Positions 2,951 to 24,278 of a stretch of DNA of 34,043 bases are shown here, one piece after another (positions within the stretch are counted from its first letter, which is position 1; every line of letters starts with the position of its first letter). The notes below the pieces were generated by a model that made no database searches, was not told the DNA's origin, and worked only from the letters and a program-made list of their open reading frames with translations. A program made the translations under genes and the position numbers. The stretch lies in IMG/VR virus record IMGVR_UViG_3300021387_000016. One strand, written 5' to 3'. This DNA is from an uncultured virus (IMG/VR IMGVR_UViG_3300021387_000016) (taxonomy: Duplodnaviria; Heunggongvirae; Uroviricota; Caudoviricetes).

Positions 2951-3025
2951 AATTTATAAAATGCGTAAATCCAGGACGTGTGTACACCCTATAATACATA
3001 TCGTAGAAAACTATGAAAACATTCA

Positions 3026-3060
3026 AGGCGGTTGACCCTTAAAAGGTTAGCCGCTTTTTT
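3026..3060 (+). terminator. Intrinsic terminator before portal
   Basis: GGCGGTTGACC-loop-GGTTAGCCGC followed by a T-run. Confidence 0.65.
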
Positions 3061-9591: not shown

Positions 9592-9598
9592 AAACAAA

Positions 9599-9775: not shown

Positions 9776-9807
9776 TTCGCAAAAGAAGATTTAATGGAAT
9801 AACTTAA

Positions 9808-9841
9808 AGAGCATCAACTGTCAAAGGTTGGTGCTTTTTTC
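9808..9841 (+). terminator. Terminator with conserved TGTCAAAG loop
   Basis: AGAGCATCAAC-TGTCAAAG-GTTGGTGCTTT plus T-run. Confidence 0.75.
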
Positions 9842-9856
9842 TATTGGAGAAAGCCT

Positions 9857-10516
9857 ATGGTAGAGATATTTAAAGTGCTCGGAACAATTCTAGCTGCAAT
9901 GATAACTACCTTTGGCGGCGGTTATTTTGTGCTAAAGAAGTATCTCCTTGAAAGAGAAGATGCTAAAGATGCGCAAATTATACAGAAGCAGATAGATAAT
10001 TCTATTGCCAAAGTAAAAGAAGAATTGAAAGCAGAGATTGCAAAACAAGTTGAACAAAGCATTAAGGATTGTGGTGAAATTGGAGATAAAGCCATAGCTG
10101 ATGCAGTTCAGGAAGCAAGGCATGATTTTGAAGAAGGTTTGAAGATGCGTGGCGAAGAAGGATTGAAACGGTTTGAAGCCAATTCAAAAGCTATAGATGA
10201 GAACACTGCAATGATAAAGCAGATTCTTACAATCCAGAAGAACTCTACGGAAAAGATTGATAAGATGGCAGATTCTATAACTGCGTTAGCACAAGTGAGC
10301 GAAGCCTGCGCAGAAAGCCAGAGAACCGCTAATTACGACAGACTTTTGATTGTAACGAGCAAGATCATTAAGTCAAAGAGAATGACTATGACCGAGAAAA
10401 CAAATCTTATTCAACTATATGATTCCTGGAAAAAACTACAGGGAAATGACATGAAGATAAAAGTTATGTATGACGAGTGTTTGAAGATTACACCTGTCCT
10501 TGATGAAGGAGTATGA
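9857..10516 (+). CDS. N-terminal TM + coiled-coil protein (holin-like family of Bacillota phages)
   Basis: One TM at the N-terminus; C-terminal YDRL...EK.NL..LYDSWKKLQGN motif resembles proteins usually found next to lysins. Confidence 0.45.
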   Translation: MVEIFKVLGTILAAMITTFGGGYFVLKKYLLEREDAKDAQIIQKQIDNSIAKVKEELKAEIAKQVEQSIKDCGEIGDKAIADAVQEARHDFEEGLKMRGEEGLKRFEANSKAIDENTAMIKQILTIQKNSTEKIDKMADSITALAQVSEACAESQRTANYDRLLIVTSKIIKSKRMTMTEKTNLIQLYDSWKKLQGNDMKIKVMYDECLKITPVLDEGV

Positions 10517-10518
10517 CA

Positions 10519-10821
10519 ATGGCAAATTACAGTGGGCACTACGAAGACTCAAGTGGAAATTTAATACTTCCTATTCCTAGCGGTGGAACAGCTACTATAG
10601 AGCTTGGGAATACTGCAAGCCAGGCATATACAAAGGGAACATTGTTATATTTTAAAAATCGTTTATGCAAGGCTACTCAGGCTATATCAAATGGAGCAAC
10701 GCTGGCTGTTGGGACTAATCTTTCCTACACATCACTTGGAACAGAGTTTTCTTCACATATGGTTGCTTCTAATGGAACAGAGTTTTCGTTTCAAACACTT
10801 ATAAATGGTGGGTATAACTAA
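10519..10821 (+). CDS. Stand-alone paralog of the constant N-domain of the 31913 fibre gene
   Basis: MANYSGHYEDSSGNLIL...TASQAYTKG...NRLCKAT...GTNLS.TS.G.E..SH..ASNG.EF aligns closely with the 31913 N-terminus. Confidence 0.75.
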   Translation: MANYSGHYEDSSGNLILPIPSGGTATIELGNTASQAYTKGTLLYFKNRLCKATQAISNGATLAVGTNLSYTSLGTEFSSHMVASNGTEFSFQTLINGGYN

Positions 10822-10842
10822 AGGAAAGGAGAAATAAACAAG

Positions 10843-11133
10843 ATGAAACTCAGTGATTTTTTGGCAGCGTTAAGAACTAACAACGTTACAGTTACAATCA
10901 ATGATCTTCAGGATAAGCTTGTTTGCAAGATTGATGCAGCTAGTTATTCTGCTCTTTCTGATGATTTGGAAAACAGAACAATTAATCGCTGGAACATTGT
11001 TGGAGCAACTTCTATCATGGTTGTGCTTAATGAGCCGGATAACAGTAATTCTGATTCAGGGAATAACAACTCAGGCAGTGATCCTAGCAATGATTCTGGT
11101 AGCGACTCAGGCAATGACCATAGCGATCCATGA
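10843..11133 (+). CDS. Hypothetical virion protein, paralog of 17397-17600, with S/D/N-rich tail
   Basis: MKLSDFLAAL...VTIND vs MTLQEFLAAL...VTVKD; strong AAGGAG SD. Confidence 0.65.
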   Translation: MKLSDFLAALRTNNVTVTINDLQDKLVCKIDAASYSALSDDLENRTINRWNIVGATSIMVVLNEPDNSNSDSGNNNSGSDPSNDSGSDSGNDHSDP

Positions 11134-11164
11134 TGTCTTTTACTGGGCATAGCAAATTCCTCCG

Positions 11165-11278
11165 AGGTGGCCATGTGTCACAGCATGGTCATCTATTTGG
11201 AATATCTACTCCCATATTTTTGATATTCCCTTCTCATAAGAGAGGCGGTTCTACTGTCACAGGTAGAATCGCTTTTTT
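11165..11278 (+). terminator. Two hairpins with TGTCACAG loops (second is a clear terminator)
   Basis: AGGTGGCCATG-TGTCACAG-CATGGTCATCT and GGCGGTTCTAC-TGTCACAG-GTAGAATCGCT followed by a T-run. Confidence 0.7.
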
Positions 11279-11410
11279 AGCACTTAGAGAAATCTAGGTG
11301 CTTTTTTCATGCCAAGGAAAAGGCATAAGAACCCTGAGAGAACAGTACATCACAACGTTACAGAGAAGTAACGGAACAAAAAACACAAATAGAAAGGTGG
11401 ACAACTAAAT

Positions 11411-12073
11411 ATGAAAAAGAAGAATCTTTGCAACTATCAACCTTCATTTCCGATGAATCTTCAGTTTTTTGCAGATGAGGGCAACACAGCACCAGAACCA
11501 TCTACTAATCCAGAAGGGAATCCAGAGGGAAACCCAGATGATAAGAATGGCGACGAAAATACCCCACCAACAAAGACATATGAAGATGCGATGGCCGAGA
11601 TTGCTGCTGCAAATGCAGAAGCAAAGAAGCTGAAAGCAGAACGTGACGCAGCTCTTAAGAAGTCCGGCGAGTTAACTAAGCAACTCAGAGCAAAAATGAC
11701 TGAGGATGAGCTTAAAACTCAGCAAGACGAGGAAGAGAAAGCAGAGCGTGAAGCTCATATGAAAGAGCTTGAGGCTTATAAGGCTAGTAACGAAGCATTC
11801 AAGCGTTACACGATGCAGGGAATGGATGCTGCACTGGCTGAGAAAGCGGCCAAGGCTGAAATTGAGGGCGATATGGATGCTCTTGCAGCAGTTTTTGCAG
11901 AGCAGAAAAAGAAAGAACTCAAGGAAGCAAAGGAGCAGTGGCTTGGTTCAAGGCCAGAGGCAAATAAGGGAGATGGCGAAGGATCTTCCATGACAAAAGA
12001 AGAGATTTTGGCAATCAAAGATCCAAAAGAACGTCAGGAAGCAATTGCCAGAAATCTCAATCTTTTTGAGTAA
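11411..12073 (+). CDS. Head scaffolding protein
   Basis: MNLQFFA N-terminal motif, acidic linker, long coiled coil, C-terminal MTKEEILAIKDPKERQEAI; directly before the capsid gene. Confidence 0.85.
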   Translation: MKKKNLCNYQPSFPMNLQFFADEGNTAPEPSTNPEGNPEGNPDDKNGDENTPPTKTYEDAMAEIAAANAEAKKLKAERDAALKKSGELTKQLRAKMTEDELKTQQDEEEKAEREAHMKELEAYKASNEAFKRYTMQGMDAALAEKAAKAEIEGDMDALAAVFAEQKKKELKEAKEQWLGSRPEANKGDGEGSSMTKEEILAIKDPKERQEAIARNLNLFE

Positions 12074-12126
12074 GCAAAGACTACAAAGAGTAGTCATACG
12101 CCAAATGGCAGAAAGGAAGAAAAATT

Positions 12127-13248
12127 ATGGCAGCTGAGAAAGGTGTAATTAAGAAAGCCGACCTCGCGAGAGCGAGAGAAGTGGATTTCGTCTATCGTTT
12201 TCAGGATGGAATCAAGAAACTTATGGAAGCATTAGGAGTAACAAGAAAGATTGCAAAACAGGCAGGTACAAACCTGAAGGCTTACAAAGCAACTGGTACT
12301 CTTCTTGACGGACTTGTAGCAGAAGGCGATATCATTCCTCTTTCACACTACAAGACTGTTCCTGTTACTTTTGATGAGATCACAATTAAGAAGTGGAGAA
12401 AAGCTACCACTGTAGAAGCTATCACAGAAAAGGGCTTCGACCAGGCAGTAACACAGACCACAGACGAGATGCTTAAGGATGTTCAGAAGGGCATCAAGAA
12501 GACCTTCTTCAATTTCCTTGCAACTGGTACTGGCCTTGCTTCTGGTGCAACATTCCAAGCAACTATTGCAGCTATTTGGGGACAACTGCAAGTCCTTTAT
12601 GAGGACACAGAAATGCAGGCTGTGTATTTCATGAATCCTCTTGATGCAGCAGATTATCTTGGTTCTGCTCCTATCACCATTCAGGAAGCTTTCGGTATGA
12701 AGTATATTGAAGACTTTATTGGCCTTGGTACTGTTATCTTTAATTCTAACGTTCCAAAGGGAACAATTTATGGTACTGCCAAGGAAAACATTATTCTCTA
12801 TTATATTCCTGTTAACGGTGCTGACATTGGTGAGGTATTTGCATTCACATCTGATGAGACAGGATATGTAGGTATTCATGAGACACCTGATTATGACAAC
12901 ATGACATCCAAGGATACAGTTGTATCCGGTATCGTTCTCTTTGGTGAGAGAATCGATGGTATCGTTGTTGGTACAATCGGTGGATCAATCACTCCTACTG
13001 TTACAACAGACGTTGATACAATCACTGTTCCTGTTGGCGGCGTAGATTCTGTTCATGCAAAGGTTAACCCTGCTGGAACAGCGTATACATGGGCTTCCGC
13101 AGATACAGATGTATTCACTGTTTCTGCTGGACTTAGCAACGCTGACGTTGTTATCACAGGTGTTGCAGCTGGTACAGCTAACCTTACATGCACAATCGGC
13201 GGTTCTGTTGTTAAGACTGTTGCTGTTACTGTTTCAGCTAGTGCTTAA
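12127..13248 (+). CDS. Major capsid protein with C-terminal Ig-like (Big_2-type) domain
   Basis: VAEGDIIPLS...KKWRKATTVEAI..GFDQAV..T motifs; last ~85 aa (V.PAGT..TWASADT.V.TV...ITGVAAGTANLT) look Ig-like. Confidence 0.88.
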   Translation: MAAEKGVIKKADLARAREVDFVYRFQDGIKKLMEALGVTRKIAKQAGTNLKAYKATGTLLDGLVAEGDIIPLSHYKTVPVTFDEITIKKWRKATTVEAITEKGFDQAVTQTTDEMLKDVQKGIKKTFFNFLATGTGLASGATFQATIAAIWGQLQVLYEDTEMQAVYFMNPLDAADYLGSAPITIQEAFGMKYIEDFIGLGTVIFNSNVPKGTIYGTAKENIILYYIPVNGADIGEVFAFTSDETGYVGIHETPDYDNMTSKDTVVSGIVLFGERIDGIVVGTIGGSITPTVTTDVDTITVPVGGVDSVHAKVNPAGTAYTWASADTDVFTVSAGLSNADVVITGVAAGTANLTCTIGGSVVKTVAVTVSASA

Positions 13249-13272
13249 TTGTAGAAAGAAGGGAAAGTGCGT

Positions 13273-13641
13273 ATGCAGTATGTAGTAACCCGTTACTTTA
13301 CTGATGCGCAGGATAACGAGTATGCCTACCACGAGGGTGATATTTACCCTCGTGAGGGCCATACCGTTTCTGAAGCGCGTCTTAAGGATCTTCTTAGTGG
13401 CAATAATTTTCAGCGCGTTGCTCTTATTAAGAGAGTAGAAAAAGTTGAAGCACCAAAGAAGAAGGAAGTTCAGGAAGAAGTTCAGGACAACGAGAATGTT
13501 GTATGGAGCGAGGACGAAATCAATAAGATGCCATTTATGAAGCTTAAGGCTATCGCAAAGCAGAATGGCATTGATGTTGAGGATAAGAAAGCGTCCGAGA
13601 TCAGAGAAGAGTTGATTGAGAAGCTTGCAAAAGAGGATTAA
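13273..13641 (+). CDS. Head-associated protein with C-terminal HeH/Rho-N-like domain
   Basis: YVV..YFTDAQD....Y..GD.YPREG N-domain; WSEDEINKMPFMKLKAIAKQNGI C-domain. Confidence 0.6.
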   Translation: MQYVVTRYFTDAQDNEYAYHEGDIYPREGHTVSEARLKDLLSGNNFQRVALIKRVEKVEAPKKKEVQEEVQDNENVVWSEDEINKMPFMKLKAIAKQNGIDVEDKKASEIREELIEKLAKED

Positions 13642-13644
13642 GCC

Positions 13645-13986
13645 ATGACAAAACAAGAAATGCTGGATGAGATTTTTGAAAACTTAAAAAGTGAAATCAA
13701 CGCGGATGAGGCCCAGGCTGATATTCTTAGTGAGAACCTTTTGAAAGTTAAAATCCAATCCGCATATCGCGAAGTCATGAGGGCAAGAAATTATCCCAAA
13801 TCTTACTCTGAAGCTCAGATTGAAACGGACATGGAAAACTATTACTCCAACATTGAAGCAATAGCCAGGTACGATTACAACGGTTCGGGAAGTGAAGGAA
13901 TGAGTTCTTATTCAGCGGATGGTACATCTATCCATTACGAAGACAGAAACAAGCTCTTTTACGGAGTATACCCAATAGCGAGGTGA
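13645..13986 (+). CDS. Head-tail adaptor (SPP1 gp15-like)
   Basis: RNYP...A.YDYN..GSEGMSSYSADGTSIHY motif and position. Confidence 0.78.
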   Translation: MTKQEMLDEIFENLKSEINADEAQADILSENLLKVKIQSAYREVMRARNYPKSYSEAQIETDMENYYSNIEAIARYDYNGSGSEGMSSYSADGTSIHYEDRNKLFYGVYPIAR

Positions 13987-13992
13987 TGTGTC

Positions 13993-14424
13993 ATGAGAGT
14001 ACCACGAAAAGTGAAACAGCCCTTGATATATGCCTTGCTTGTAAGAAAAGAACCTATCTATGAGCGTGACAGTGATGGAAACATAGTTTACAAGATAATC
14101 AAGGGAGATTATGTTCCTAAAGATACAGGTGAAAAGAGGGATATTTATTCTGCACCGATAACTTTTTACAATTCTATCTCAGGTCAACTTTCTGAGGATG
14201 AATTACAGGCATTTGGAACTAAAAATAATGCAATAGCAAAAATGACTTATAAACGTGAGCTTTACCCTTTTAGAACGGGTACGCTCATTTGGAAGACTTC
14301 GGAAGTGAAATTCCTTGAAGATGGTACACCAGACCCTACATCTGCGGATTATCGGGTTATTGGTGTCATGACCGAAGGACAGTACTTTTGGAAGTGCTTA
14401 TTGGAAGCGGCGAATAAGAAATGA
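13993..14424 (+). CDS. Head closure protein (gp16-like)
   Basis: Synteny; AFG...IW...ADYRVIGV motifs. Confidence 0.65.
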   Translation: MRVPRKVKQPLIYALLVRKEPIYERDSDGNIVYKIIKGDYVPKDTGEKRDIYSAPITFYNSISGQLSEDELQAFGTKNNAIAKMTYKRELYPFRTGTLIWKTSEVKFLEDGTPDPTSADYRVIGVMTEGQYFWKCLLEAANKK

Positions 14425-14972
14425 AACTTGAAATAGAGCTAAACCAAAAATCCATCAGCCATGCAATCGGTGAACTAAAAAGATATCGTGAGTCTCTTCC
14501 AATTAAGAACGAAATCTTTGTACGAAGATTGTTAGATGAGGGTATAAGAGTCGCAAAAGAAAATACTGGCGGTTACGGTAGACTTATTTCTTTTTCTAAA
14601 GATGGGCACGGCGGGTTAAAAACTGTAGGGTATATGATTGCAGATAGCCGTCCTATAACTGCTGAATGGGCAGTTAAAGACGAAAATGGAAATGAAGTCA
14701 AGAAAACAGCAGAAGTTAGTCCTCTTCTTATGGCCGAATTTGGTTCAGGCCCTATGGCAGAAGTTTTATTCGACATAGCAGGTGTTGGTCAAGGGACGTT
14801 CCCTGGACAGACTCATGCTTTTGAAACTTCCTGGTGGTATAAAGATTGGGAAACTAAGGAATGGCATCAGGCTTTTGGTATCAGACCTAAACATCCTATG
14901 CATGAAGCAGAAATGGCAATGATAGAAAGAGTTCAGGAAATCGCAAGAGAGGTATTCAACAGTGGCAACTGA
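14421..14972 (+). CDS. Neck/tail completion protein (HK97 gp10-like)
   Basis: LLMAEFGSG...P..PMHEA...IAREVF; synteny. Confidence 0.65.
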   Translation: MKLEIELNQKSISHAIGELKRYRESLPIKNEIFVRRLLDEGIRVAKENTGGYGRLISFSKDGHGGLKTVGYMIADSRPITAEWAVKDENGNEVKKTAEVSPLLMAEFGSGPMAEVLFDIAGVGQGTFPGQTHAFETSWWYKDWETKEWHQAFGIRPKHPMHEAEMAMIERVQEIAREVFNSGN

Positions 14973-15399
14973 TATATGGTATTCGGAAATTGAATCAACT
15001 ATCTTTACTCACTTGCAATACGTGCTTATTGAAGCAGACGATGCGCTTTTTCCAGAACTGAACTGCACTACTTCAAGTAAGAGCGAATCTCTTGAGAACG
15101 TCAGTGATTTTCCAAATCTCTACGTGCATCTTTTGCCACTATCCGAAATGGGTAATGATTTAACCAATGAGACTGTTAATGCTGTTAGAGCAACATTTGA
15201 ACTACAGCTATATTCCGATAAGTCAGAAAGCGAATGTAGAGAAATTATGACCGCCTGTATTCAGGAAATGAAGAAACTTCACTTTAATGTGAGCATGTTT
15301 CCAGACCCTCAAACAGCCGCAGAGAAAAAGTATTTTGCTATTGCTCGTTTTACTAGAGTGATAGGGGCTGGGGATTCAGATATTGTACAACAGGATTAA
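14962..15399 (+). CDS. Tail terminator protein
   Basis: FP.LY.H.L...E.GNDL....VNA...TFELQ...ARF.RVIGAGD; last connector gene before the tail tube gene. Confidence 0.7.
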   Translation: MATDIWYSEIESTIFTHLQYVLIEADDALFPELNCTTSSKSESLENVSDFPNLYVHLLPLSEMGNDLTNETVNAVRATFELQLYSDKSESECREIMTACIQEMKKLHFNVSMFPDPQTAAEKKYFAIARFTRVIGAGDSDIVQQD

Positions 15400-15462
15400 T
15401 GAGTACTTGTTTTATAATCAACAAATAGAGCATAATTGGGTTATGCAAAAGGAGTTGATTAT

Positions 15463-16326
15463 ATGGCAAATATCATTGATTTAACCGGACAACGTTTTGG
15501 AAGGTTAGTTGTAATACAAAAAGGAAAACCACATATTACATCTGGCGGTGCGTATATCACAACATGGTACTGCAAATGTGATTGTGGAAACTACACAACA
15601 GTTCAAGCACCAAAGCTAAGGAAGGGGCATACTACTTCATGTGGTTGCCTTATTAAAGAGAATAAGGGACATGCCTATGAGGATCTTGTCGGTCAGAAAT
15701 TTAATCGACTCACTGTAATCAAGTTTATTCCTCCGAGCGAGAGAACTGTTCGAGGTTACAACTGGCTATGCCAATGTGAATGTGGCAAAATGATTAAGGC
15801 AAACGCAAATAAGCTGAAATCAGGAATGCAACAGTCATGTGGTTGTCTGAAAGAAGAAATGAAATATAACATTGGAAATGTCAATAAGAAGTACAAATAC
15901 TCAAACAAGAGACTTTACGGCGTTTATAAAGCAATGCTGAATAGATGCTACAATCCAAATGGTCGTGAGTATAAAAACTATGGTGGCAGAGGAATTACTG
16001 TTTGTGATGAATGGCTAGGCGAATATGGCTATGATGCTTTTGCAGAATGGGCAATTAGTACTGGCTATGATATCAACGCCGAACATGGTGATTGTACAAT
16101 TGATAGAAACGATGTTAATAAAGGCTATTCGCCTGATAATTGTTCATGGAAAACGAATAAGCAACAACAAAGTAACCGAAGAGATACCGTTATTCTTTCA
16201 TACAATGGTGAAAAGCATAGTATGAAAGAGTGGTCAGAAATACTGGGTATTTCTTATTCGAAGATTATTTACCATGTACATAAAGGCAAAACGCTTGAAC
16301 AAATAATAGATATGAATGGCAAATAA
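15463..16326 (+). CDS. Free-standing HNH-type homing endonuclease
   Basis: Two DLxGQxFxRLxV...WxCxCxCG...SCGC repeats, then RLY.VY.AM..RCYNP...YKNYGGRGITVCDEW...TIDRNDVNKGYSPDNCSW; AAGGAG SD before ATG 15463. Confidence 0.85.
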   Translation: MANIIDLTGQRFGRLVVIQKGKPHITSGGAYITTWYCKCDCGNYTTVQAPKLRKGHTTSCGCLIKENKGHAYEDLVGQKFNRLTVIKFIPPSERTVRGYNWLCQCECGKMIKANANKLKSGMQQSCGCLKEEMKYNIGNVNKKYKYSNKRLYGVYKAMLNRCYNPNGREYKNYGGRGITVCDEWLGEYGYDAFAEWAISTGYDINAEHGDCTIDRNDVNKGYSPDNCSWKTNKQQQSNRRDTVILSYNGEKHSMKEWSEILGISYSKIIYHVHKGKTLEQIIDMNGK

Positions 16327-16350
16327 CCATTTATATAGATACACGATAAT

Positions 16351-16378
16351 AAAAAAGAGCAGAAATGCTTTTTTTTGT
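16351..16378 (+). terminator. Probable bidirectional terminator
   Basis: A-run, GAGCA-GAAA-TGCTT, T-run. Confidence 0.6.
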
Positions 16379-16401
16379 TGCAAAAAGAAAGGAGAATAAC
16401 T

Positions 16402-17155
16402 ATGGCAGCACCAGGAGTTAGCACTTTAGGTAAACTTATTCAGTAATGTATACAATGCGAAGTTGCTGAAATGCCGTCTGCTATGAATGTTGCCAAGTAG
16501 ATAGCAGATGATTAGTGCGGTATTAAGCGGAGAAAAGGTTTGCAACCTCAATCCGAACCGAAGGCTAGGCTTAGTCTAGTCAGGGGCAACGCATAGATGG
16601 TGAAAAAGATATAATCCATCCAAGAGACCGCGCCATCTGGCAACCATAAGTGGTGAAAAGATATGCTGAACTAAAGTGTAATGCTTTAGAAATATGGATA
16701 AAAAGCCATATGATAACAAATTGATTAAGTTGGGTTATGGAATCGGTTCTTCATTACCATCTTCCTTTACCGTGCTTACAAGAATTAATGCAATTGGTGG
16801 CATTTCTCTGGAAACAGAACAAATTGATGCTAGTGCCCTTGAAGACTATGTTACAAGATACGTAGCCGGAAGACAGGATACTGGCGGATCATTTCCTATT
16901 ACCATCAATGTTACTGATGATACAATTGCTGAGTGGGAGGCACTTATCGCAGCTTACAACGCAAAGGCTAATGACGAAGCACTTTACCTTGAGGTATGGT
17001 CTCCATATCTTACAAAGGCATTCTTCATCAAGGCCCAGCCTCCACAGGTTCTTCCTATGTCAGAAATGGCACAGAACGAACTTCAGACAATTGAGATCGG
17101 ATTAACAATTGAAGAGTATCTTGGAATGGATACAGCGGTAGAACCAGTGGGGTGA
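16402..17155 (+). CDS. Major tail (tube) protein, two exons 16402-16431 + 16724-17155 (153 aa spliced)
   Basis: AAAGGAG SD then MAAPGVSTLG; joined in frame to IKLGYG...LTRINAIGGISLETEQIDASALEDYVTRYVAGRQDTGG, a typical siphophage tube protein. Confidence 0.85.
16432..16723 (+). ncRNA. Group I self-splicing intron (292 nt, no ORF)
   Basis: 5' exon ends in U, intron ends in G; P3 GTGCGGT(16515)/ACCGCGC(16627); P4 region AAGCGGA..AATCCG; P7 GCATA(16591)/TATGC(16662); P9 hairpins 16671-16711; splicing restores the frame. Confidence 0.88.
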
Positions 17156-17337: not shown

Positions 17338-17341
17338 GATT

Positions 17342-17368
17342 GGGGCGAGCTTCGGCTTGCCCCTTTCC
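17342..17368 (+). terminator. Hairpin with UUCG loop
   Basis: GGGGCGAGC-TTCG-GCTTGCCCC then TTT. Confidence 0.65.
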
Positions 17369-17396
17369 CTTATAAAAAGAAAAGGAGAATAAGGTC

Positions 17397-17600
17397 ATGA
17401 CACTTCAGGAATTTCTTGCAGCTCTTGATAATCCAACAGCAGTTGTAACCGTTAAGGATAGTACCGAGGGTAATCCAGACCTCATTAAGCTTTATGCGGC
17501 TGGATATGCGCAGCTTCTTGCGACTCTCCTTGCAAGAGAGATTGATAAGGTTACTGTGGTTAAGGCAGATCAGATCACAGTTATTCTTAAGGCTGAGTAA
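17397..17600 (+). CDS. Hypothetical protein, paralog of 10843-11133
   Basis: Strong SD; sequence similarity over ~65 aa. Confidence 0.65.
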   Translation: MTLQEFLAALDNPTAVVTVKDSTEGNPDLIKLYAAGYAQLLATLLAREIDKVTVVKADQITVILKAE

Positions 17601-17613
17601 TTGAATATTGTTT

Positions 17614-17644
17614 CAAGGGGCTGTCCGGTTGGACGGCCCTTTTT
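17614..17644 (+). terminator. Intrinsic terminator
   Basis: AAGGGGCTGTCC-GGTT-GGACGGCCCTT plus T-run. Confidence 0.7.
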
Positions 17645-17671
17645 GGTATTAAAAGGGAAAGGAATATTAAT

Positions 17672-18010
17672 ATGAGCAGATTTTTTACAATCAACGAAAA
17701 AAGATATCAGGCAAAACCATTTGATTTTAATACAGTATGCGACCTTGAAGATAATGGAGTATCGCTTCAGGACATGTCCAAGAAACCTATGAGCATGGCA
17801 AGAGCATATTTTGCACTTTGCCTTAATGGTGACAAAGAAAAGGCTGGAAAAGAAATCCAGGAGCATGTCATGCATGGCGGTGATTTCAATGAATTATATA
17901 CTGCTATGGGTGAAGAGCTAAATGAATCTGATTTTTTTCAGGCTCTCAACCAGAAGCAGAACGAGGAAACTCCGGAAGTGGAGATCAAAGAAGAGAAGAA
18001 AGCAAAGTAA
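17672..18010 (+). CDS. Tail assembly chaperone (gpG-like)
   Basis: Between tube and tape measure genes; contains slippery GAT TTT TTT CAG (T7 at 17932-17938). Confidence 0.8.
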   Translation: MSRFFTINEKRYQAKPFDFNTVCDLEDNGVSLQDMSKKPMSMARAYFALCLNGDKEKAGKEIQEHVMHGGDFNELYTAMGEELNESDFFQALNQKQNEETPEVEIKEEKKAK

Positions 18011-18405
18011 AATACACGTCCTTAAGACGGAAGTATGAAGCGGAGCTTGTGCCTCAGATGATGGTAATGGGAGTAAGCTATAACGAATTTTGGAAGCTTA
18101 CTCCACGGCAAGTAAAGGTTATTGCCGAAGGGTATAAATTAAAACATCAGGTGGATGATGAGCAGGCATGGATTGTTGGTGGTTATGTATTTGAAGCTGT
18201 TTCTTTGGCACTTGGTAATTCCTTTAGAAAGAAGTTTCAGAAGCCGAAGGATTATTACAAGGATACAAAACCAATATCCAAGCGAGTTGAAGATTTACCT
18301 GACGAAAACGGACTTACAGAAGAATACAAGAAAGAAAAGACAAAATTACTCTTTAAAAATCTTGAAATCATGGCAGCTAACTACAGATTAAATAATGGGA
18401 AGTAA
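17932..18405 (+). CDS. Tail assembly chaperone gpT part (via -1 frameshift)
   Basis: The -1 frame is open from the T7 tract to 18405; MGVSYNEFWKLTPRQVK motif typical of gpT-like domains. Confidence 0.75.
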   Translation, partial: FFSGSQPEAERGNSGSGDQRREESKVKYTSLRRKYEAELVPQMMVMGVSYNEFWKLTPRQVKVIAEGYKLKHQVDDEQAWIVGGYVFEAVSLALGNSFRKKFQKPKDYYKDTKPISKRVEDLPDENGLTEEYKKEKTKLLFKNLEIMAANYRLNNGK

Positions 18406-18430
18406 GGTGTTACAGCCTTACTTCTTTTTT
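18397..18430 (+). terminator. Terminator with TGTTACAG loop
   Basis: GGGAAGTAAGG-TGTTACAG-CCTTACTTCTT plus T-run. Confidence 0.7.
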
Positions 18431-18447
18431 ACGAAAGGGATGAAGAG

Positions 18448-21400
18448 ATGCCTACAAATCTTGATACTCTACAAATTGAAATAAAGAGTTCAGCCACAGA
18501 TGCATCGAGTGCAATTAAGAATCTCGAATCAGCCCTTAAAAACTTAAACAAGCAGCTTGACCTTAAGGATGGCACAAAACTAGTAACAATACTTAATACA
18601 CTCTCTGGTTCTGCTAACGATTTTTCTACAAAAATAAATAACATAACCGGAAGCGGTTTTAATAAAGTTACTAAAGGAGCTGAAAATGCACAAAAAGCTA
18701 TTCAGCAACTAAAGAAAGAAGGAGAGGATCTTCAAAAAACACTAGAAGGTTTTCATACTCCTGATTTAGACAAAGCGTTTGGCCTTGCGTTTTCCAAGAA
18801 GAGAATTTTAGGTGAAGATGCTGCAAAAGGCAACCCCAAAATTACGGAAACCGGATTTATTATTCCAAATTGGGATGACTCTGCGCCGCAAAGAGTAGCT
18901 GAAGCTGTACAAAATATTACCCAAAAGGCGAAAGATCTTAACGAAGAAATGGATGCTTTCCATTTCCCTGATTTTGGTAATGAATTAAAAGAAGCAGATA
19001 CTTTTGGAAAAATCGCTAACCAGGCACAAAATGCAAGTAATTCTATAGGTGATGCCGTCGAAAATATCCGTAAATTTAAAGCACTGATTTCTGGCATGGA
19101 GAGCGGAAAAATTAAGTTTAACGAAGAAGATTACGCTCGATATATAAAAGGCTTAAACGAAGCTGAAACTGCTGTGAAAAATTATAAGCAGGCCCTAACG
19201 GAAAAGATGCCTGAACCAGAACCGCTTAAATCTAAAACACTTATCGGTGATTTTCTGCCCCAATTACTTGTATTAGGAGAAAAAATAGAAGAAATATCCG
19301 GTAAATTTAATAATCTGGCTGATAAAGGAGTTTCTTTATTTAAAAAATTAATTACTCCGCTTAAAATGGCTGCGAGCGAATATGTTGAGAAGTTTGAGCA
19401 TATGAAAGCTTCGGTAGAAGGCTTTAAACAGCACTTTGAGAAGAGTCTTACTAAAATGTCGCAATTTTGGAAACGAACAATGCGTACATTTACATTTATG
19501 ATTATCCGTAAAGCTTTTACGGCTGTCATTAAAGAAGTTGGAAATGCAATACAGTCTCTGGCCATGTATTCAAATGCAATGGGTACAGCATTTAATACCG
19601 ACTTGTCAAACATGGTTGCTGATTTTCAATATGTTGGACGTGCTATTGTAAGTGCTTTTGCTCCGTTACTTAGCATTGTTGGGCCTATCATTGATGCTAT
19701 AACCAGCAAAATTGCAACCCTGCTTACATATATCGGAATGTTATTTTCACTTCTTGGTGGAAAGACAACATTTACAAAGCCTAAAAAGAACGTAGATAAC
19801 TACGCAGAATCACTTGATAATGCCAGTAAGTCAGCCAAGAATCTTACGATGGGTATTGACGAGCTGAACATCATTTCTGAAAACAAGAGTAGTGGTGGAA
19901 GTTCGAAGCCTTTTGATGGATGGGAAGATGCATGGGAAGAAATGCAGATACCACAATGGCTTAAGGATTTGTTTGATTGGCTTAAAAATCTGTTTAAGAG
20001 ATTCTTTGATCCACTTAAGGAAGCATGGAATAGAGCAAAACAGTATCTTATTGATGGTTTTAAGACCATGATGGACTCTATTCTTCGTCTGTTGTGGCAT
20101 ATGCTTGATGACTTCCTTACAATGTGGAATCAGGAAAAAACTATCCGCATGTTTGAGATGATGCTTAGAATTGTGGGTGACTTAATGAGAGTTGTCCGCA
20201 ATTTGGCTAATCAGTTCGATAAGGCTTGGCAAAAGGGTAAAGTAGGTTTACGCATATTTGAAAACTTAAGAGATATTCTTGCAACAATTGTGGATCATGT
20301 AAGAAATGTTTCGTATTACATGATTGGTTGGGCTGATAGCATGAACTTTAGCCCATTGCTTGAATCCTTTGAACTCCTGACAAGAAAGATGGTTAAACTT
20401 GCAGATTTCCTTGGTGGAATATTTGAAGACATCATGATCGAAGGTGTTCTTAAGTACATTAAATTCCTTATAGAAGATGCTATCCCACACCTTCAGGAAA
20501 CACTTGCTGAGATAATAGATACCTTTAATTTCAATGCGCTTAGAGAGAAGTTGAGACCACTTTGGTCAGCTATTGAGGAAGTACTTGAGCAAATTCACAC
20601 AGGTGTCACAAACACTATTGGAAACCTTGGAAAAGAAATCGCACGTTTTACCAATTCGGAAGAATTTACTGATTTTCTTCAAAGAATTGTGGATATATTA
20701 AATCTCATAACCGCTGAGAGAGTCGAAAAGATTCTGACCGGAATAGGTAAAGGGATACTTGCTATTGCCAAATCTATTATCAAGTTTATTAATAGTGAGC
20801 CTTTCATGAAATTCCTACAGGCTATTGCGGATTGGATTGATAATCATTCAGTAGACCAGATTGCAGGAATTCTTGAAAAAATAGCTAATGCGATTCTGCT
20901 ATTCAAATTTGGAGCATTTGCAACCGAAAAGATTGCTGGCTTCCTTAAGTTTTTTGCGGCAATTAAAGCACTTCAAGACCTAGCAACAATAGCTAGTGGA
21001 TTTAAAGAGTTAGGTGCTGGTATGGAAGGAGCTGCATCAGGAGCAGGCGCACTTGCAGTTGCAGGCGAAGGTCTTTTGATTGTCTTTGGCGAAGTTGTTG
21101 GTATCCTAGCTCTTAAGGGAGAGTTTGACCTTATTAAGGATGCCACTTATAGATTATCTGAGGGGGTTGAAACTTTATCAGATAAATTTAAAGTGCTCGC
21201 GGAAATCCTTGGTGGGCTGCACTTAGGAAATTTTGCAAGTAATATTCTTGGGCCAGTAGGAATATTGGCAAGTAAGCTCCTTGAACTTTCAGGTATTATG
21301 AATGGACTTAGTGCATCCAACTTTGAATCAGTTATGGATGCTGTTCTAACAAAGGGCGATACCACTGTAGCAATGGTCAAGGATTGGTTTTCTGGTGTAA

Positions 21401-24240
21401 CCGCAGATGTTCAGCAGAATGTTCAGACCTGGACGGATACAATTAGAAACCTTACTCAAGATGAAGGTGATCTTGCAAATTATTCACAGACTCTTGAAAC
21501 TCTTGAATCTGCTTTCCGTGGAACAACGGATATGACTGTATTATCTTCGAAGATTCTTACACAGAAGTATCAGGATATGACTACTGCAATAGATAATTAT
21601 GTAATGCAGAGTACTGATGCATTAAAGAAAGAACTGGAAGACAACAGAGAATATTATGAGTCAAAAGGCAAGAATGTTGATGACATGATTGCCAAAATTG
21701 ATAAACAAGCTGAAGAAGAAATGCAGATTTATCAAAAGACTCAAGAAGCAGTTAATAACTCAGCCAAAGCATATGAAGATGCAGTTGAGAAATATGGTTA
21801 TGGTTCAAAGAAAGCAGAAGAGGCTTATAAGACTTATGAAGATGCAGTAACTAAACACATTGATGCTATTAAGGACTATCGTACTGAAACTGAAAAGATT
21901 GATACAACATATGCTTCTCAACAGATTGAGAAACTAGGAAAGAGCCTTGATCTTAGTCAATATTCAAATATGGAAGATGCTGCATCTGACATTAAAGGTG
22001 CACTTGAAGAAATTAGAGTCACATATGAAAAAGAGCTATCTTCTGTAAATTCAACTGTTGAAGAAAAAATGGCCTTTCTTAAAGAGCAGTTTGAGAAAGG
22101 ACGCATTGACCAGGAAGAGTACGATATAGGTCTTAAAGCTCTTGCAGAAAAAGCAGAAGAAGATGGAAATACTCTTACTGAAGCATACCAAGAAGCCCTT
22201 GATTTATTTGACCAACAGCTTGCGGCTAAGTTAGAAGATGTTAAGACTAATGCTGAAGCAGAATGGGAAGAAGCTAATCCAATTAAGCGTTTCTTTATGG
22301 GAAGCAGTAAAGATGCTTATGTTGCTTCTCAAATGCAGACATATGTAGATGAAATGCTTGGTGAAAGTGGACTTGCTGGTGAATTGCAAGCCGCTTTTGA
22401 AAAATTGCCAGGTGATATTGAACCTGTAGCTTCACAGTCAATGTCTCAGATAGTTGAAGATACAAGTTCAGTATTTAATACTTGGGATCAGGTAATAAAT
22501 GCAGATAGCCTTAAAGAAGCGGTAGGCAATGTATTTAATAGTGCAGGAGAAAAGGTTTCTGAATGGGGCGCTGAAAAGAGAGAATCTATTTCTACATGGG
22601 TTGAAGAAACAAAGACGAGTCTTACCGAAAAGCTCGGACTTATGAGAGATAGTGTCGAACAATCATTTGATAGCCTTCCTGAAGCGATTGGTTACGCTCT
22701 AGGTTTTGTTTCTGGAAAGCTAATAGAATGGGGTGCTGAACTAATTGCCTGGGCTGAAACAAATATTCCTCTGTTTGTAGATAGCGTTGTAGAGTTCTTT
22801 GCTACACTTCCTGGTAAAATTTGGGAAAAACTGGTAGAAGTTAAAGCAAAGTTTGATGAGTGGAAAACTGAGCTTATTACCTGGGTAACAACTGAAATAC
22901 CTTTGATAGTAGATGTAATTCTTAAGTTCTTTGGTGAAATTCCTACCAAACTATATAACTTAGGAACAGATATCATAAATGGTCTCTTAAATGGTATCAA
23001 AGATGCTTGGGAAGCCTTGAAAGGTGGTGTAAAAGAATTTTGCGACGGATTCTTACAAGGTTTCAAAGATGCTTTAGGTATTGCTTCCCCTTCAAAAGAA
23101 GCTGAGACAATCGGAGATTATGTTATTGAAGGTTTGTTTTTACCATTTACTAAAGATCAGACATCTACATTAAAGGTATTTGTAAATGCATTCTTGGATG
23201 TATTTAGGGTTAATTTAAGCCCCGACAAATTTACTGTATATGGTAACAATGTTATTCAAGGGTTAATACAACCGCTAACTAACTCTTCAAGCCAGTTTGT
23301 AACAGCTGTTAATCAGATTTTTGTCGTGATAACAGAAACAATACTTACAAACATTCAAACCCTTGGTGTAGCTTTAACTGAAGCTCTTACAACATTTGTT
23401 GCAACATATATTTTACCTTTCTTTGACTTGGAGATGTGGCAGCCTATTCTTGATAACCTCATGAATGCAGTATTTATTCCTAACTTTGAACTGTTTAGGA
23501 CTTGGTTTACTGAGTCAATGACAGTTTGGTGGGAAGAAGATGTATTATTCTGGTTCACTAATGAAAAATGGGATGGAGATATCTTCACACCACTTGCTGA
23601 TAACATTCATGAGCATTGGAATACATTCTCAAGTTGGTGGGATACCACAATGAATGCATGGTGGAACAACCAGGTAGTCCCATGGTTTGCTAAAGCTAAA
23701 TGGTTAGAGCAATTCAAACATATTCTTGAGGCTGCGAAAGAAACTTTTGAAGAAATCAAAAGGATAATAACTGAGCAGATAAATGAAGCTCAACAGGCAG
23801 TTTCAGATGCTTGTGAAACAATGAAAGCATCTATAGCGGAAGTAATAACAGCTATTGGTGAACTGATGGATGCTCTCTCAGGACTTGAAGGACTTGGTGG
23901 ACTTGAAGGTGGCAAATTCACAATTGCATTTGGTGGTGGTGCTCCTAAATTTGCCGAAGGTGGTTTCCCAACAAGAGGTTCTCTTTTCTGGGCAGGGGAA
24001 CAAGGCCCAGAACTTTTGGGTTCTATTGGTGGACATACTGCGGTAGCATCTAATGATGAAATCACAGGAATTGCTAATGCGGTGTATGCAACAGGTAATA
24101 CTGAGGCAGAACTTCTTGGTCAGCTTATCACTGTTACAAGGATGATGCTTGATAAAGACCCTGTAGTAATTTCCGATAAGGAAATAGCAAGGATGAATCT
24201 TAGCGGACAGAACAAGTTAGGAATGAGTATTATAACATAA
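18448..24240 (+). CDS. Tape measure protein
   Basis: 1930 aa, helical, LDTLQIEIKS N-terminus, MGIDELNII, periodic W/F repeats, C-terminal PKFAEGGFPTRGSLFWAGEQGPEL. Confidence 0.93.
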   Translation: MPTNLDTLQIEIKSSATDASSAIKNLESALKNLNKQLDLKDGTKLVTILNTLSGSANDFSTKINNITGSGFNKVTKGAENAQKAIQQLKKEGEDLQKTLEGFHTPDLDKAFGLAFSKKRILGEDAAKGNPKITETGFIIPNWDDSAPQRVAEAVQNITQKAKDLNEEMDAFHFPDFGNELKEADTFGKIANQAQNASNSIGDAVENIRKFKALISGMESGKIKFNEEDYARYIKGLNEAETAVKNYKQALTEKMPEPEPLKSKTLIGDFLPQLLVLGEKIEEISGKFNNLADKGVSLFKKLITPLKMAASEYVEKFEHMKASVEGFKQHFEKSLTKMSQFWKRTMRTFTFMIIRKAFTAVIKEVGNAIQSLAMYSNAMGTAFNTDLSNMVADFQYVGRAIVSAFAPLLSIVGPIIDAITSKIATLLTYIGMLFSLLGGKTTFTKPKKNVDNYAESLDNASKSAKNLTMGIDELNIISENKSSGGSSKPFDGWEDAWEEMQIPQWLKDLFDWLKNLFKRFFDPLKEAWNRAKQYLIDGFKTMMDSILRLLWHMLDDFLTMWNQEKTIRMFEMMLRIVGDLMRVVRNLANQFDKAWQKGKVGLRIFENLRDILATIVDHVRNVSYYMIGWADSMNFSPLLESFELLTRKMVKLADFLGGIFEDIMIEGVLKYIKFLIEDAIPHLQETLAEIIDTFNFNALREKLRPLWSAIEEVLEQIHTGVTNTIGNLGKEIARFTNSEEFTDFLQRIVDILNLITAERVEKILTGIGKGILAIAKSIIKFINSEPFMKFLQAIADWIDNHSVDQIAGILEKIANAILLFKFGAFATEKIAGFLKFFAAIKALQDLATIASGFKELGAGMEGAASGAGALAVAGEGLLIVFGEVVGILALKGEFDLIKDATYRLSEGVETLSDKFKVLAEILGGLHLGNFASNILGPVGILASKLLELSGIMNGLSASNFESVMDAVLTKGDTTVAMVKDWFSGVTADVQQNVQTWTDTIRNLTQDEGDLANYSQTLETLESAFRGTTDMTVLSSKILTQKYQDMTTAIDNYVMQSTDALKKELEDNREYYESKGKNVDDMIAKIDKQAEEEMQIYQKTQEAVNNSAKAYEDAVEKYGYGSKKAEEAYKTYEDAVTKHIDAIKDYRTETEKIDTTYASQQIEKLGKSLDLSQYSNMEDAASDIKGALEEIRVTYEKELSSVNSTVEEKMAFLKEQFEKGRIDQEEYDIGLKALAEKAEEDGNTLTEAYQEALDLFDQQLAAKLEDVKTNAEAEWEEANPIKRFFMGSSKDAYVASQMQTYVDEMLGESGLAGELQAAFEKLPGDIEPVASQSMSQIVEDTSSVFNTWDQVINADSLKEAVGNVFNSAGEKVSEWGAEKRESISTWVEETKTSLTEKLGLMRDSVEQSFDSLPEAIGYALGFVSGKLIEWGAELIAWAETNIPLFVDSVVEFFATLPGKIWEKLVEVKAKFDEWKTELITWVTTEIPLIVDVILKFFGEIPTKLYNLGTDIINGLLNGIKDAWEALKGGVKEFCDGFLQGFKDALGIASPSKEAETIGDYVIEGLFLPFTKDQTSTLKVFVNAFLDVFRVNLSPDKFTVYGNNVIQGLIQPLTNSSSQFVTAVNQIFVVITETILTNIQTLGVALTEALTTFVATYILPFFDLEMWQPILDNLMNAVFIPNFELFRTWFTESMTVWWEEDVLFWFTNEKWDGDIFTPLADNIHEHWNTFSSWWDTTMNAWWNNQVVPWFAKAKWLEQFKHILEAAKETFEEIKRIITEQINEAQQAVSDACETMKASIAEVITAIGELMDALSGLEGLGGLEGGKFTIAFGGGAPKFAEGGFPTRGSLFWAGEQGPELLGSIGGHTAVASNDEITGIANAVYATGNTEAELLGQLITVTRMMLDKDPVVISDKEIARMNLSGQNKLGMSIIT

Positions 24241-24245
24241 GTCAA

Positions 24246-24278
24246 GGCGGTCAGATGTCAAAGTCTGGCCGCTTTTTA
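24246..24278 (+). terminator. Terminator with TGTCAAAG loop
   Basis: GGCGGTCAGA-TGTCAAAG-TCTGGCCGCT plus T-run. Confidence 0.75.

Follow-up and report, generated by a model that had tools for sequence, protein, structure and literature searches.

In the late operon of the phage studied here, hairpins with largely different stems share one apical loop, and selection very probably maintains this loop as a sequence-specific RNA signal. The hairpins are stem-loops of the sense-strand RNA, located on or beside intrinsic terminators inside the operon. Purifying selection acts on the loop, and the stems change by compensatory substitutions. The fuller statement, that a selected signal of sense-strand terminator loops would also be recognized by a trans-acting reader, has in our estimate slightly less than an even chance of being correct.

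Motif hairpins of the late operon

The window, meaning the whole stretch of DNA that was analysed (34,043 nucleotides), belongs to an uncultured tailed phage of roughly 70 kb, sampled from gut or rumen, with a siphophage-type gene order. An initial annotation had reported five similar loops, and all of them were found where it had placed them, on the + strand:

9806..9839, + strand: motif hairpin 1, stem AGCATCAAC/GTTGGTGCT, loop TGTCAAAG, followed by T6
11165..11194, + strand: motif hairpin 2, stem GGTGGCCATG/CATGGTCATC, loop TGTCACAG
11239..11278, + strand: motif hairpin 3, stem GCGGTTCTAC/GTAGAATCGC, loop TGTCACAG, followed by T6
11279..11302, + strand: ordinary terminator capped by GAAA, adjoining the 3' side of motif hairpin 3
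18397..18426, + strand: motif hairpin 4, stem GAAGTAAGG/CCTTACTTC, loop TGTTACAG, followed by T6
24244..24275, + strand: motif hairpin 5, stem GCGGTCAGA/TCTGGCCGC, loop TGTCAAAG, followed by T5

The same annotation described stems of 10–11 bp with unrelated sequences. The stems are indeed mostly unrelated, but three of them (11165, 11239, and 24244) start with AGGYGG, and the core stems comprise 9–10 pairs including G.U, or 11–16 when flanking A/T pairs are counted. As had been noticed, four of the five hairpins are directly followed by T5–T6, which together with their dG (-14.7 to -19.7) corresponds to the hairpin and U-tract of an intrinsic terminator. Hairpin 9806–9839 has a dG of -14.7 and scores 41.9 bits with model R1, and hairpin 11239–11278 has a dG of -16.8 and scores 40.3 bits. 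The remaining copy, 11165–11194 (loop at 11176; 37.3 bits), continues into the tail CTATTTGG without a T-run and is directly preceded by a CCUCC box. Its layout is that of a sixth motif hairpin, located about 70 nt before the start of the window and upstream of the terminase gene, which also lacks a U-tract.

Three hairpins lie 5–20 nt 5' of the next ribosome-binding site, in agreement with the reported position directly before a Shine-Dalgarno sequence. The 3' end of hairpin 9806–9839 is 18 nt from the ATG at 9857, hairpin 18397–18426 separates the tail chaperone genes from the tape measure gene (ATG 18448), and hairpin 24244–24275 follows the tape measure gene and precedes the next tail gene, which has its probable start at 24294 and occupies the usual place of the distal tail protein (Dit) gene. 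The GAAA-capped terminator at 11279..11302 is a member of a tandem terminator block 5' of the scaffold gene, and in L074 the same hairpin again stands behind a motif hairpin.

The motif is unusual because of its placement in hairpins and not because of its frequency, since the 8-mer TGTYAMAG is not over-represented in the window (8 occurrences versus 6.6 expected). Five of these eight occurrences have 11 or more flanking pairs, and the remaining three have one at most. Counted from the side of the hairpins, TGTYAMAG occupies 5 of the 20 eight-base segments with at least 9 flanking pairs, against a chance of 9.3e-5 per segment (binomial P ~1e-16). None of the 17 other relaxed-motif matches in 36 kb of early genes falls in a hairpin. 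Over the whole phage, the loop caps 6 of 22 strong gene-strand hairpins, and other terminator-like hairpins on that strand carry the loops CTTAAAA, GAAA (twice), TTCG, GGTT, and AAA. The first of these loops belongs to the following feature:

3025..3057, + strand: terminator before the portal gene, stem foot AAGGCGGTTGAC, loop CTTAAAA, only 22.8 bits with model R1

This motif-like stem foot bearing a different loop shows that the loop is not bound to a stem family. In Rfam searches of the window, the sole match at gathering level was int-alpA at 9510–9576, off the hairpins. With E values up to 0.5, nothing overlapped the motif hairpins, and no family covers them.

Metatranscriptome data from two studies consist of assembled contigs, which are blind to true 3' ends, strand, and level and may include DNA carry-over. 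In these assemblies, contig depth stays low as far as 11135, is high between 11136 and 17543, and falls from 17544 to 18611. Contigs start at 11319–11363 and end at 11292, 18363, and 18396, positions that are not proven 3' ends; the contig ending at 11292 passes through hairpin 11239–11278. A drop in depth, for which DNA carry-over has to be kept in mind, coincides with hairpin 18397–18426. The depth changes at the 11.2-kb and 18.4-kb hairpins are thus consistent with working terminators.

A conserved hexaloop on covarying stems

The cross-phage motif and covariance search proposed in the initial annotation was carried out on 2.93 Mb of related phage DNA, in which 256 four-base loop patterns were compared by counting distinct hairpins. 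The pattern GT.A.A ranked first of the 256: on the gene strand it caps 47 of 624 distinct hairpins, on the opposite strand 1 of 329. It corresponds to a hexaloop, G-U-N-A-N-A, which reads UGUNANAG with its U.G closing pair; this pair is found in 35 of the 47 distinct motif hairpins versus 74 of the 577 others. Among the 47 copies, G1, U2, A4, and A6 never change, and positions 3 and 5 vary freely. By contrast with the constant loop, all 11 stem pairs covary, with 97.9% of cells paired in a set that was chosen for being hairpins. The conservation of the loop combined with the divergence of the stems argues strongly for selection on the loop as an RNA signal. In addition, 71 of the 470 stem cells are G.U pairs, which together with the strand asymmetry points to the sense-strand RNA as the acting molecule. 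A run of at least four T follows 30 of the 47 motif hairpins, and the 17 without such a run indicate that not all of them are terminators.

In many related uncultured phages, the motif is found again at junctions of the same types, namely 5' of the terminase gene, 5' of the scaffold gene, and both before and after the tape measure gene. After the latter, TGTCAAAG is found on four stems (the window; L004/L005, which are identical; L007; and L008/L011), and near-variants occur in L006 and in L003, where a segment of about 570 nt is inserted between two motif-like hairpins. At the junction 5' of the tape measure gene, the window has TGTTACAG, L010 has TGTCATAG, and L207 and L204 have TGTCAAAG; positions 4 and 6 of the 8-base loop drift there on a nearly unchanged stem. 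The complete relative G005 has no motif hairpin, and its terminators at the same junctions are capped by GAAT, TTAT, and CTGTGA, which indicates that a late operon can work without this loop. Numerous relatives harbor only a single copy, a poor fit to a multi-site regulon.

The hosts, deduced from metagenome bins, are probably Firmicutes. In a strictly filtered survey of 121 genomes of the likely host family, with 57 candidates scored per genome, 27 genomes gave any model match, for a total of 29 matches, of which ten have the exact UGUNANAG loop. Where neighbors were scanned, these matches mostly lie behind ordinary host genes. In 400 kb taken from one metagenome-assembled genome (MAG) of the family, 1 of 71 terminator-like hairpins gave a loose match. 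Equal frequency in host terminators had been named at the outset as an outcome speaking against a phage signal; the loop is instead rare in those of the likely host family.

Candidate readers and known loop-reading systems

A docking site is the simplest explanation for a base-specific apex that is carried by unrelated stems, common in the phage family, and rare in the terminators of its likely hosts. The factor that would dock there may be a protein or an RNA, encoded by the phage or by the host. Since the terminator hairpin itself carries the loop, docking would most likely adjust the amount of transcription or RNA that gets past each junction, either by factor-dependent read-through or because the 3' end is protected or processed. 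Head and tail-tube transcripts would then be abundant, and those of the tape measure and distal tail genes scarce. A putative antitermination role of the loop is plausible. We know of no N-like system in Firmicutes, nor of any antiterminator of their phages that reads a hairpin loop.

One candidate partner gene had been put forward in the initial annotation:

2236..2646, + strand: gpX, 136 aa, all-helical

As an obligatory reader, gpX was rejected, since four motif-bearing phages rated 100% complete, with one motif hairpin each, have no homologue in a search whose positive control worked. It is therefore not a general partner, and it is also the only co-occurring candidate found.

The lambdoid boxB elements (lambda, P22, and phi21), which are read by N, resemble the motif hairpins in being small phage RNA hairpins whose signal is the apical loop. 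PMC12550061 describes boxB loops of five or six nucleotides that adopt a GNRA/UMAC-like fold and loop out their variable bases, such as GACAA in P22, with its C looped out, and the hexaloop CUAACC in phi21. Judged from its sequence, the motif would be compatible with such a nut-site fold, with G1 and A6 at the ends and variable positions 3 and 5. A plausible predicted structure, drawn by likeness to these loops, would be compact and comprise the U.G pair, a sheared G.A pair, a UNAN turn, and two variable bases pointing outward. Although boxB acts in terminator read-through, the likeness is only an analogy: boxB is located near the operon start, apart from terminators and with boxA, whereas the motif loop caps the terminators themselves, and its sequence, GUNANA closed by U.G, is different. 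A promoter-proximal position, a boxA, and an arginine-rich N-like protein were looked for around the motif and not found, and alignment A4 contains no shared linear box outside the loop. A crude scan for arginine-rich ORFs yielded no conserved candidate and identified no N-like protein.

ANTAR antiterminators, such as EutV of Enterococcus, are proteins that read hexaloops on nascent RNA beside intrinsic terminators and thereby control termination. PMC8934654 gives a single hexaloop as the minimal site and a consensus in which positions 1 and 4 are A and G. The motif loops, by contrast, have G1 and A4 in all 47 copies. Furthermore, the ANTAR arrangement involves a second hexaloop hairpin that competes with the terminator stem, whereas the motif hexaloop is the terminator's own loop. 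The RNA-binding ANTAR domain (PF03861) was detected in none of the four phage records searched (G001, G004, G007, and G131) and in one host-family MAG, by a search with a weak control, as 14 control genomes gave no match either.

Other explanations and significance

That the loop has no reader appears rather unlikely. In that case, UGUNANAG would be a self-contained structural cap, a putative unusually stable or fast-folding apex that this lineage would use as others use GNRA or UUCG tetraloops, for reliable folding of terminators. The loop does outnumber the GNRA-capped (22 and 13) and UUCG-capped (16) hairpins of the phage family, both of its variable positions are those able to loop out, and no partner protein was found. 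G005 has tetraloops instead at the same junctions. UCAC and UAAC are, moreover, UMAC sequences, for which GNRA-like folds are reported, as for the phi21 boxB hexaloop CUAACC (PMC12550061). However, a generally stable cap would be expected to be common in host terminators, where the loop is rare. The weak U.G, and not G-C, predominates as closing pair (35 of 47), and U2 never varies, although a GNRA-like fold normally tolerates any base at its N position.

It is improbable that the loop imitates the anticodon loop of queuosine-family tRNAs, with U-G-U-N-A-N standing for U33-G34-U35-N36-A37-N38 of tRNA-Asp, Asn, Tyr, and His, so that the hairpins would serve the host tRNA-guanine transglycosylase (TGT) as substrates, or a colicin E5-type anticodon nuclease as decoys or targets. 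In the motif, UGU and the following A are fixed, position '36' is free (C 34, A 8, G 3, and U 2), and position '38' is A, C, or U, never G; minimal TGT hairpin substrates likewise have UGU at the 5' side of the loop. Bacterial TGT requires only UGU in a hairpin loop (PMC10103133), a virF mRNA hairpin with a 6-nt loop is modified by TGT in vitro (PMC1950534), and colicin E5 is directed against the shared sequence UQU (PMC1635277). TGT genes occur in each of the three candidate host bins, and the phage encodes tRNA-Asn(GUU) and tRNA-Tyr(GUA) genes. By contrast, U at '33' is missing in 12 of the 47 hairpins because the closing pair covaries, UGU being present in 36 copies (35 with the U in a U.G and 1 with the U in a U-A closing pair). 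The loop has 6 or 8 nt instead of 7, the conserved A7 and G8 of the 8-base loop have no tRNA counterpart, and the stems have 9–13 pairs instead of 5. A search of two phage records (G004 and G007) turned up neither TGT nor queuosine-pathway genes, nothing links queuosine to terminators, and no benefit to the phage is evident. The more specific proposal, in which terminator loops would be anticodon-loop mimics either modified by TGT or serving as decoys or sensors for a nuclease cutting G34-U35, seems a shade more improbable still; if true, it would tie late gene expression to the state of host tRNA modification or of tRNA-cleavage defence.

Finally, an action of the motif as DNA, either as the -35 box of an antisense promoter (TTGACA lies within CTTTGACA, the reverse complement of TGTCAAAG) or as a nuclease or recombinase site at module boundaries (the hairpins lie at module junctions, two motif-like hairpins bracket the L003 insert, and RNA contigs of both studies diverge from the window at 11338, adjoining the hairpin block), is highly improbable. 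The 71 G.U cells, read on the opposite strand, are A/C mismatches, which pair poorly in DNA, and the strand asymmetry is 47 to 1. The variable loop positions coincide with T and G in TTG, where -35 boxes are most strongly conserved, no -10 hexamer at a distance of 16–18 nt was seen by eye in the sequence, and the T-runs behind 30 of 47 hairpins are on the sense strand.

A terminator loop serving as a docking site remains the preferred reading. The motif is short, sharply defined, and widespread, with four fixed and two free loop bases on covarying stems, and the terminators that bear it would govern the relative amounts of head, tail-tube, and tape measure transcripts. Late-gene control in phages of Firmicutes is poorly understood, and this directly testable motif could lead to a new RNA-binding regulator or to a new stable RNA loop fold. 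Should it be only a structural cap, RNA structure prediction and terminator design would still gain a new recurrent hexaloop.

Fixed-loop hairpins in the late region

The window corresponds to the late region of a tailed phage. It shares sequence with two other IMG/VR contigs, both from one sample. G004 (50.5 kb) begins about 36 kb upstream of it and reaches about window position 14,700, and G001 (21.8 kb) overlaps it from about 14,600 onward, so the phage measures about 70 kb. Its relatives, 40–94 kb in size, are uncultured phages from gut and rumen samples, and the best clue to the host is a contig in a Lachnospiraceae metagenome-assembled genome (MAG) whose capsid protein is 83% identical. 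Megablast against named phages gave no match, the portal protein, searched against IMG/VR, retrieved no contig but that of the window itself, and among named phages the two closest in capsid protein, Dulem virus 33 and Butyrivibrio virus Ceridwen, carry no motif hairpin.

Late genes of the window, as assigned by a PHROG scan
126-1889, + strand, large terminase
3075-4658, + strand, portal
4665-5327, + strand, head-morphogenesis protein
11411-12073, + strand, scaffold
12127-13248, + strand, major capsid protein
15436-16326, + strand, HNH endonuclease
listed between the HNH endonuclease and the tape measure, + strand, tail genes
18448-24240, + strand, tape measure protein, 1930 aa
next in order, + strand, distal tail genes, then endolysin at 30193-30936

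The motif is a hexaloop G-U-N-A-N-A, often closed by a U.G pair and then read as the 8-mer TGTYAMAG, and hairpins capped by it (UGUCAAAG) are called motif hairpins here. The initial annotation had described five of them, and all five loops were recovered where it had placed them (hairpins 1 to 5 at 9806-9839, 11165-11194, 11239-11278, 18397-18426 and 24244-24275, + strand). They cap hairpins of 9–13 pairs; four are followed by T5–T6 runs, and three stand immediately 5' of the ribosome-binding site of the next gene, again as first described. The 8-mer is not enriched in the window (8 copies against 6.6 expected). Of the 8 copies, five have 11 or more contiguous pairs around them and three have no more than one. 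On the + strand, only 20 of 34,035 eight-base segments have 9 or more flanking pairs, and TGTYAMAG occupies five of these 20, which at a chance of 9.3e-5 per segment corresponds to a P of about 1e-16. What is odd about TGTYAMAG is its placement on stems, not its abundance, and the fixed-loop hairpin is a real and statistically solid feature. The remaining terminator-like hairpins of the same strand carry the ordinary loops GAAA, TTCG, GGTT, AAA and CTTAAAA.

A sixth motif copy (GGATTGCAATG TGTCACAG CATTGCAATC), without a T-run, lies about 70 nt upstream of the window's first base, with a tRNA cluster on one side and the terminase gene on the other. The 36 kb of early genes contain 17 other relaxed-motif matches, all of them outside hairpins, and in the whole phage the motif loop caps 6 of 22 strong gene-strand hairpins. 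The sixth hairpin is preceded, at a distance of about 60 nt, by an unusual tRNA-like sequence of 84 nt (Rfam tRNA, 37.5 bits; no ARAGORN call). An SPFH protein gene is close to the last two genes listed below, also upstream of the terminase gene.

Features just upstream of the window and its terminase gene, positions in locus L036 (G004:C1:14001-32000)
842-6564, - strand, tRNA-Asn(GUU), tRNA-Tyr(GUA), tRNA-Leu(UAA) and tRNA-Gln(UUG)
1523-2206, - strand, homologue of the Tad3-like Thoeris inhibitor (PF25185, E 1e-29)
2347-3912, - strand, 521-aa DUF2828/DUF7788/vWA protein, with a domain layout like that of Ro60/TROVE RNA-binding proteins

Other elements adjoin the motif hairpins inside the window. 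A 16-nt exact direct repeat (AGTTCGCAAAAGAAGA) occurs at 9473-9488 and 9774-9789, with none expected by chance, and flanks about 300 nt that hold an int-alpA RNA (Rfam RF02996, 9510-9576, 39.3 bits) and a 58-aa ORF; this segment looks like a small inserted cassette immediately upstream of hairpin 1. Small paralogous proteins are encoded at 10843-11133 and 17397-17600 (N-termini MKLSDFLAAL... and MTLQEFLAAL...), and both genes end right before a terminator hairpin. For the gene that follows the tape measure gene, the ORF finder chose the ATG at 24255, which overlaps the loop of hairpin 5; relatives start at MAFLEIN, and the gene start is therefore probably 24294, behind a GGAGG ribosome-binding site.

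The loop in related phages and in the host family

The cross-phage motif and covariance comparison proposed in the initial annotation bore out its main observation, the loop being kept on differing stems in 47 distinct gene-strand hairpins. These come from a pooled set of 2.93 Mb of related loci, centred on gpX (the 136-aa protein of window gene 2236-2646), on the capsid gene or on the Dit position (the place after the tape measure gene where the distal tail protein gene usually sits), to which the window and the part upstream of it were added. Among 256 four-base loop patterns GT.A.A ranks first, with 47 of 624 distinct gene-strand hairpins; GNRA caps (22 and 13), UUCG caps (16) and AT.A.G (14) come next. 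On the opposite strand GT.A.A caps 1 of 329 hairpins. A U.G closing pair is found in 35 of the 47 motif hairpins versus 74 of the 577 others. In the alignment of the 47 sequences G1, U2, A4 and A6 are invariant, position 3 is C in 34, A in 8, G in 3 and U in 2, and position 5 is A in 21, C in 17, U in 9 and never G. Compensatory changes are seen at all 11 stem pairs, and since the set was picked as hairpins bearing the motif loop, the pairing percentage is partly true by construction and stem diversity is the informative part. G.U pairs fill 71 of 470 stem cells, and a T-tract of at least four T follows 30 of the 47. The related phages show the conserved unit to be G-U-N-A-N-A, a hexaloop whose closing pair covaries. 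The hairpins matched no Rfam family, and the literature, searched in full text, gave no account of this loop.

At the junction that follows the tape measure gene, TGTCAAAG caps four different stems (those of the window, of the identical L004 and L005, of L007, and of L008 and L011), near-variants (TGTAAAAG, TTTCAAAG and TTTCAACG) occur in L003 and L006, and in L002, L010 and L009 the loop is different or the hairpin absent. The junction before the tape measure gene has a nearly constant stem with TGTTACAG, TGTCATAG or TGTCAAAG. From the near-variants at these junctions it follows that positions 4 and 6 of the 8-mer drift freely and the others hold. Upstream of the scaffold gene, hairpins stand in arrays of three or four in each of four relatives (G006, G007, G008 and G003:C5), and one and the same hexaloop, GUCAAA, is closed there by U.G, A-U or G-C; homologues of the small paralogous proteins precede these arrays. 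Several motif hairpins have immediately 5' of them a CU-rich box, CCUCC or CUCCUCC, whose sequence complements that of ribosome-binding sites (window 11155-11164; G007 62150-62161 and about 62290; locus L096 about 15540), strongest at motif copies without a U-tract.

A covariance model built from 13 hairpins gives motif hairpins 31–48 bits, versus at most 27.6 bits for other terminators. The seemingly motif-negative loci L236-L282 carry a motif hairpin that lacks a T-run and scores below the model threshold, for example at 1317-1352 in L247 (TGTAAAAG, in the motif-hairpin alignment A4), with the same hairpin at 3587-3624 in L249. Clearly motif-free complete relatives, as needed for phylogenetic profiling of other partners, are represented by G005 alone. 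In 121 genomes from the family of the Lachnospiraceae MAG (about 350 Mb; E <= 1e-3), with 57 candidates scored per genome under strict filters, there were 29 matches in 27 genomes, roughly the number expected by chance, and 10 of the 29 had the exact UGUNANAG loop. Neighbouring genes were scanned at 16 of the match loci: most of these follow ordinary genes of the host, such as rplL, pheT and degV, and both loci in genome G122 are inside a prophage-like contig. Only one of 71 terminator-like hairpins in 400 kb of the Lachnospiraceae MAG has a loosely matching hexaloop, and in two MAGs containing relatives of the window phage strong matches are confined to phage contigs. The loop is not equally common in terminators of the presumed host; equal frequency is what the initial annotation had named as refuting its proposal. 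These comparisons show that the motif loop caps terminator hairpins and is specific to one phage family.

RNA contigs across the terminator junctions

Metatranscriptome contigs, which show neither true ends nor strand, may include DNA carry-over and prove nothing by their uncovered parts or exact ends, cover the region in two studies; in both, their depth is low over 9000-11135, several-fold higher over 11136-17543, declines through 17544-18611 and is close to zero along the tape measure gene. Among the contigs listed, one end falls at 11292, immediately beyond hairpin 3, with restarts at 11319-11363, and others fall at 18363 and at 18396, the last base before hairpin 4. This pattern fits, weakly, a terminator block that has a promoter or RNA 5' end behind it, upstream of the scaffold gene, and a strong yet leaky terminator 5' of the tape measure gene. 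The complete, motif-free G005 has terminators at the same junctions with the loops GAAT, TTAT and CTGTGA; the motif loop is therefore an add-on that is not required for termination.

A conserved element with the core CTGAGAGAACAG (window about 11325-11345) lies past the terminator block and ahead of the scaffold gene, and is found at the same position in relatives with the motif (G006, G007, G008, G003:C5) and without it (G005). RNA contigs begin at or near it (11319, 11338 and 11363), and it may be a late promoter, a 5' end or a site of processing. Elsewhere, RNA contigs from three runs in the two studies link 16431 straight to 16724 and omit 292 nt just 3' of the HNH endonuclease gene, among them 16694, the position at which the major tail protein ORF is annotated to start. 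The join restores no obvious reading frame when read by eye, and Rfam intron models found no match there; it could reflect an intron-like element or a strain variant without the insert.

Candidate readers and possible function of the loop

The initial annotation had named gpX as a candidate reader of the loop. The gpX family comprises at least 327 unnamed metagenomic proteins, and gpX occurs together with the motif in five records, namely the window phage and the four relatives with scaffold-side arrays; it is absent from G005. Among gpX-centred loci, 25 of 79 have a motif hairpin of at least 30 bits, 5.5–10.3 kb downstream of gpX. Motif matches were obtained in 29 of 79 capsid-centred loci, which include a large group of 44–62-kb phages with one motif hairpin each, before the tape measure gene. 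Four phages of this group rated 100% complete (G131, G133, G135 and G137) have one 37-bit hairpin each and no gpX by a profile search that recovered gpX in G007 at E 5e-51 as a control; gpX is therefore rejected as an obligatory reader and is not the general one. Its predicted fold is all-helical (pLDDT 84). Foldseek found nothing at E <= 1e-3, and the best VIA-align row, a phage 21 Q protein chain (Z 5.9, rmsd 7.4), and the sigma region 4 domains aligned to residues 66-136 in the C-terminal half (Z 4.7–5.1, rmsd 2.2–2.3) are all below the tool's meaningful level; the modelled structure has no convincing relative (all Z < 6). In at least 10 gpX-centred loci, a second fixed-hexaloop hairpin lies about 4–6 kb downstream of gpX (e.g. 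L093 14840, L097 15725), with ATAATG on a TCCTTTTGYCGT/GCGGTGAAAGG stem that shows small covarying changes and no U-tract.

A search of four phage records for an ANTAR domain was negative, and a scan for small arginine-rich proteins gave no conserved one. The idea that the loop pairs with another RNA of the phage was rejected: the sole reverse-complement match in the window (2540-2547) is in a coding region and within the chance count, and a common RNA partner is unlikely because two loop positions vary. Mimicry of a T-loop was also rejected, the position equivalent to A58 being variable.

A cap that is purely structural and needs no reader is an unlikely explanation, if the strongest of the alternatives. 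Mimicry of a queuosine-family anticodon loop (UGU-N-A-N) is quite improbable: published work on the TGT minimal substrate (PMC10103133; PMC1950534) and on colicin E5 (PMC1635277) speaks for it, and no TGT gene was found in the two phage records searched. The stem G.U pairs, the T-runs and the 47-to-1 strand asymmetry point to sense-strand RNA rather than DNA, which makes a DNA-level site the least likely of the three and a very far-fetched one; an antisense promoter read at the DNA level was rejected.

By analogy, the systems closest in working would be boxB/N and the ANTAR hexaloops, although the motif fails those defining features of both that were tested. The ANTAR loop consensus has A1 and G4 (PMC8934654), whereas the motif has invariant G1 and A4. 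The ANTAR hairpin competes with the terminator stem, and boxB stands apart from terminators, whereas the motif loop is on the terminator hairpins themselves.

The motif loop is very probably a selected, sequence-specific RNA signal. It may fold with a U.G pair, a sheared G.A pair and a UNAN turn, leaving its two free bases exposed; such a fold would be similar to the penta- and hexaloops of boxB RNAs, which are GNRA/UMAC-like (PMC12550061). More tentatively, the loop may serve as a docking site for a trans-acting factor that would tune read-through or 3'-end fate at operon junctions, and those copies that lack a U-tract, close to where the packaging genes begin and within the scaffold-side arrays, could be loading or titration sites.
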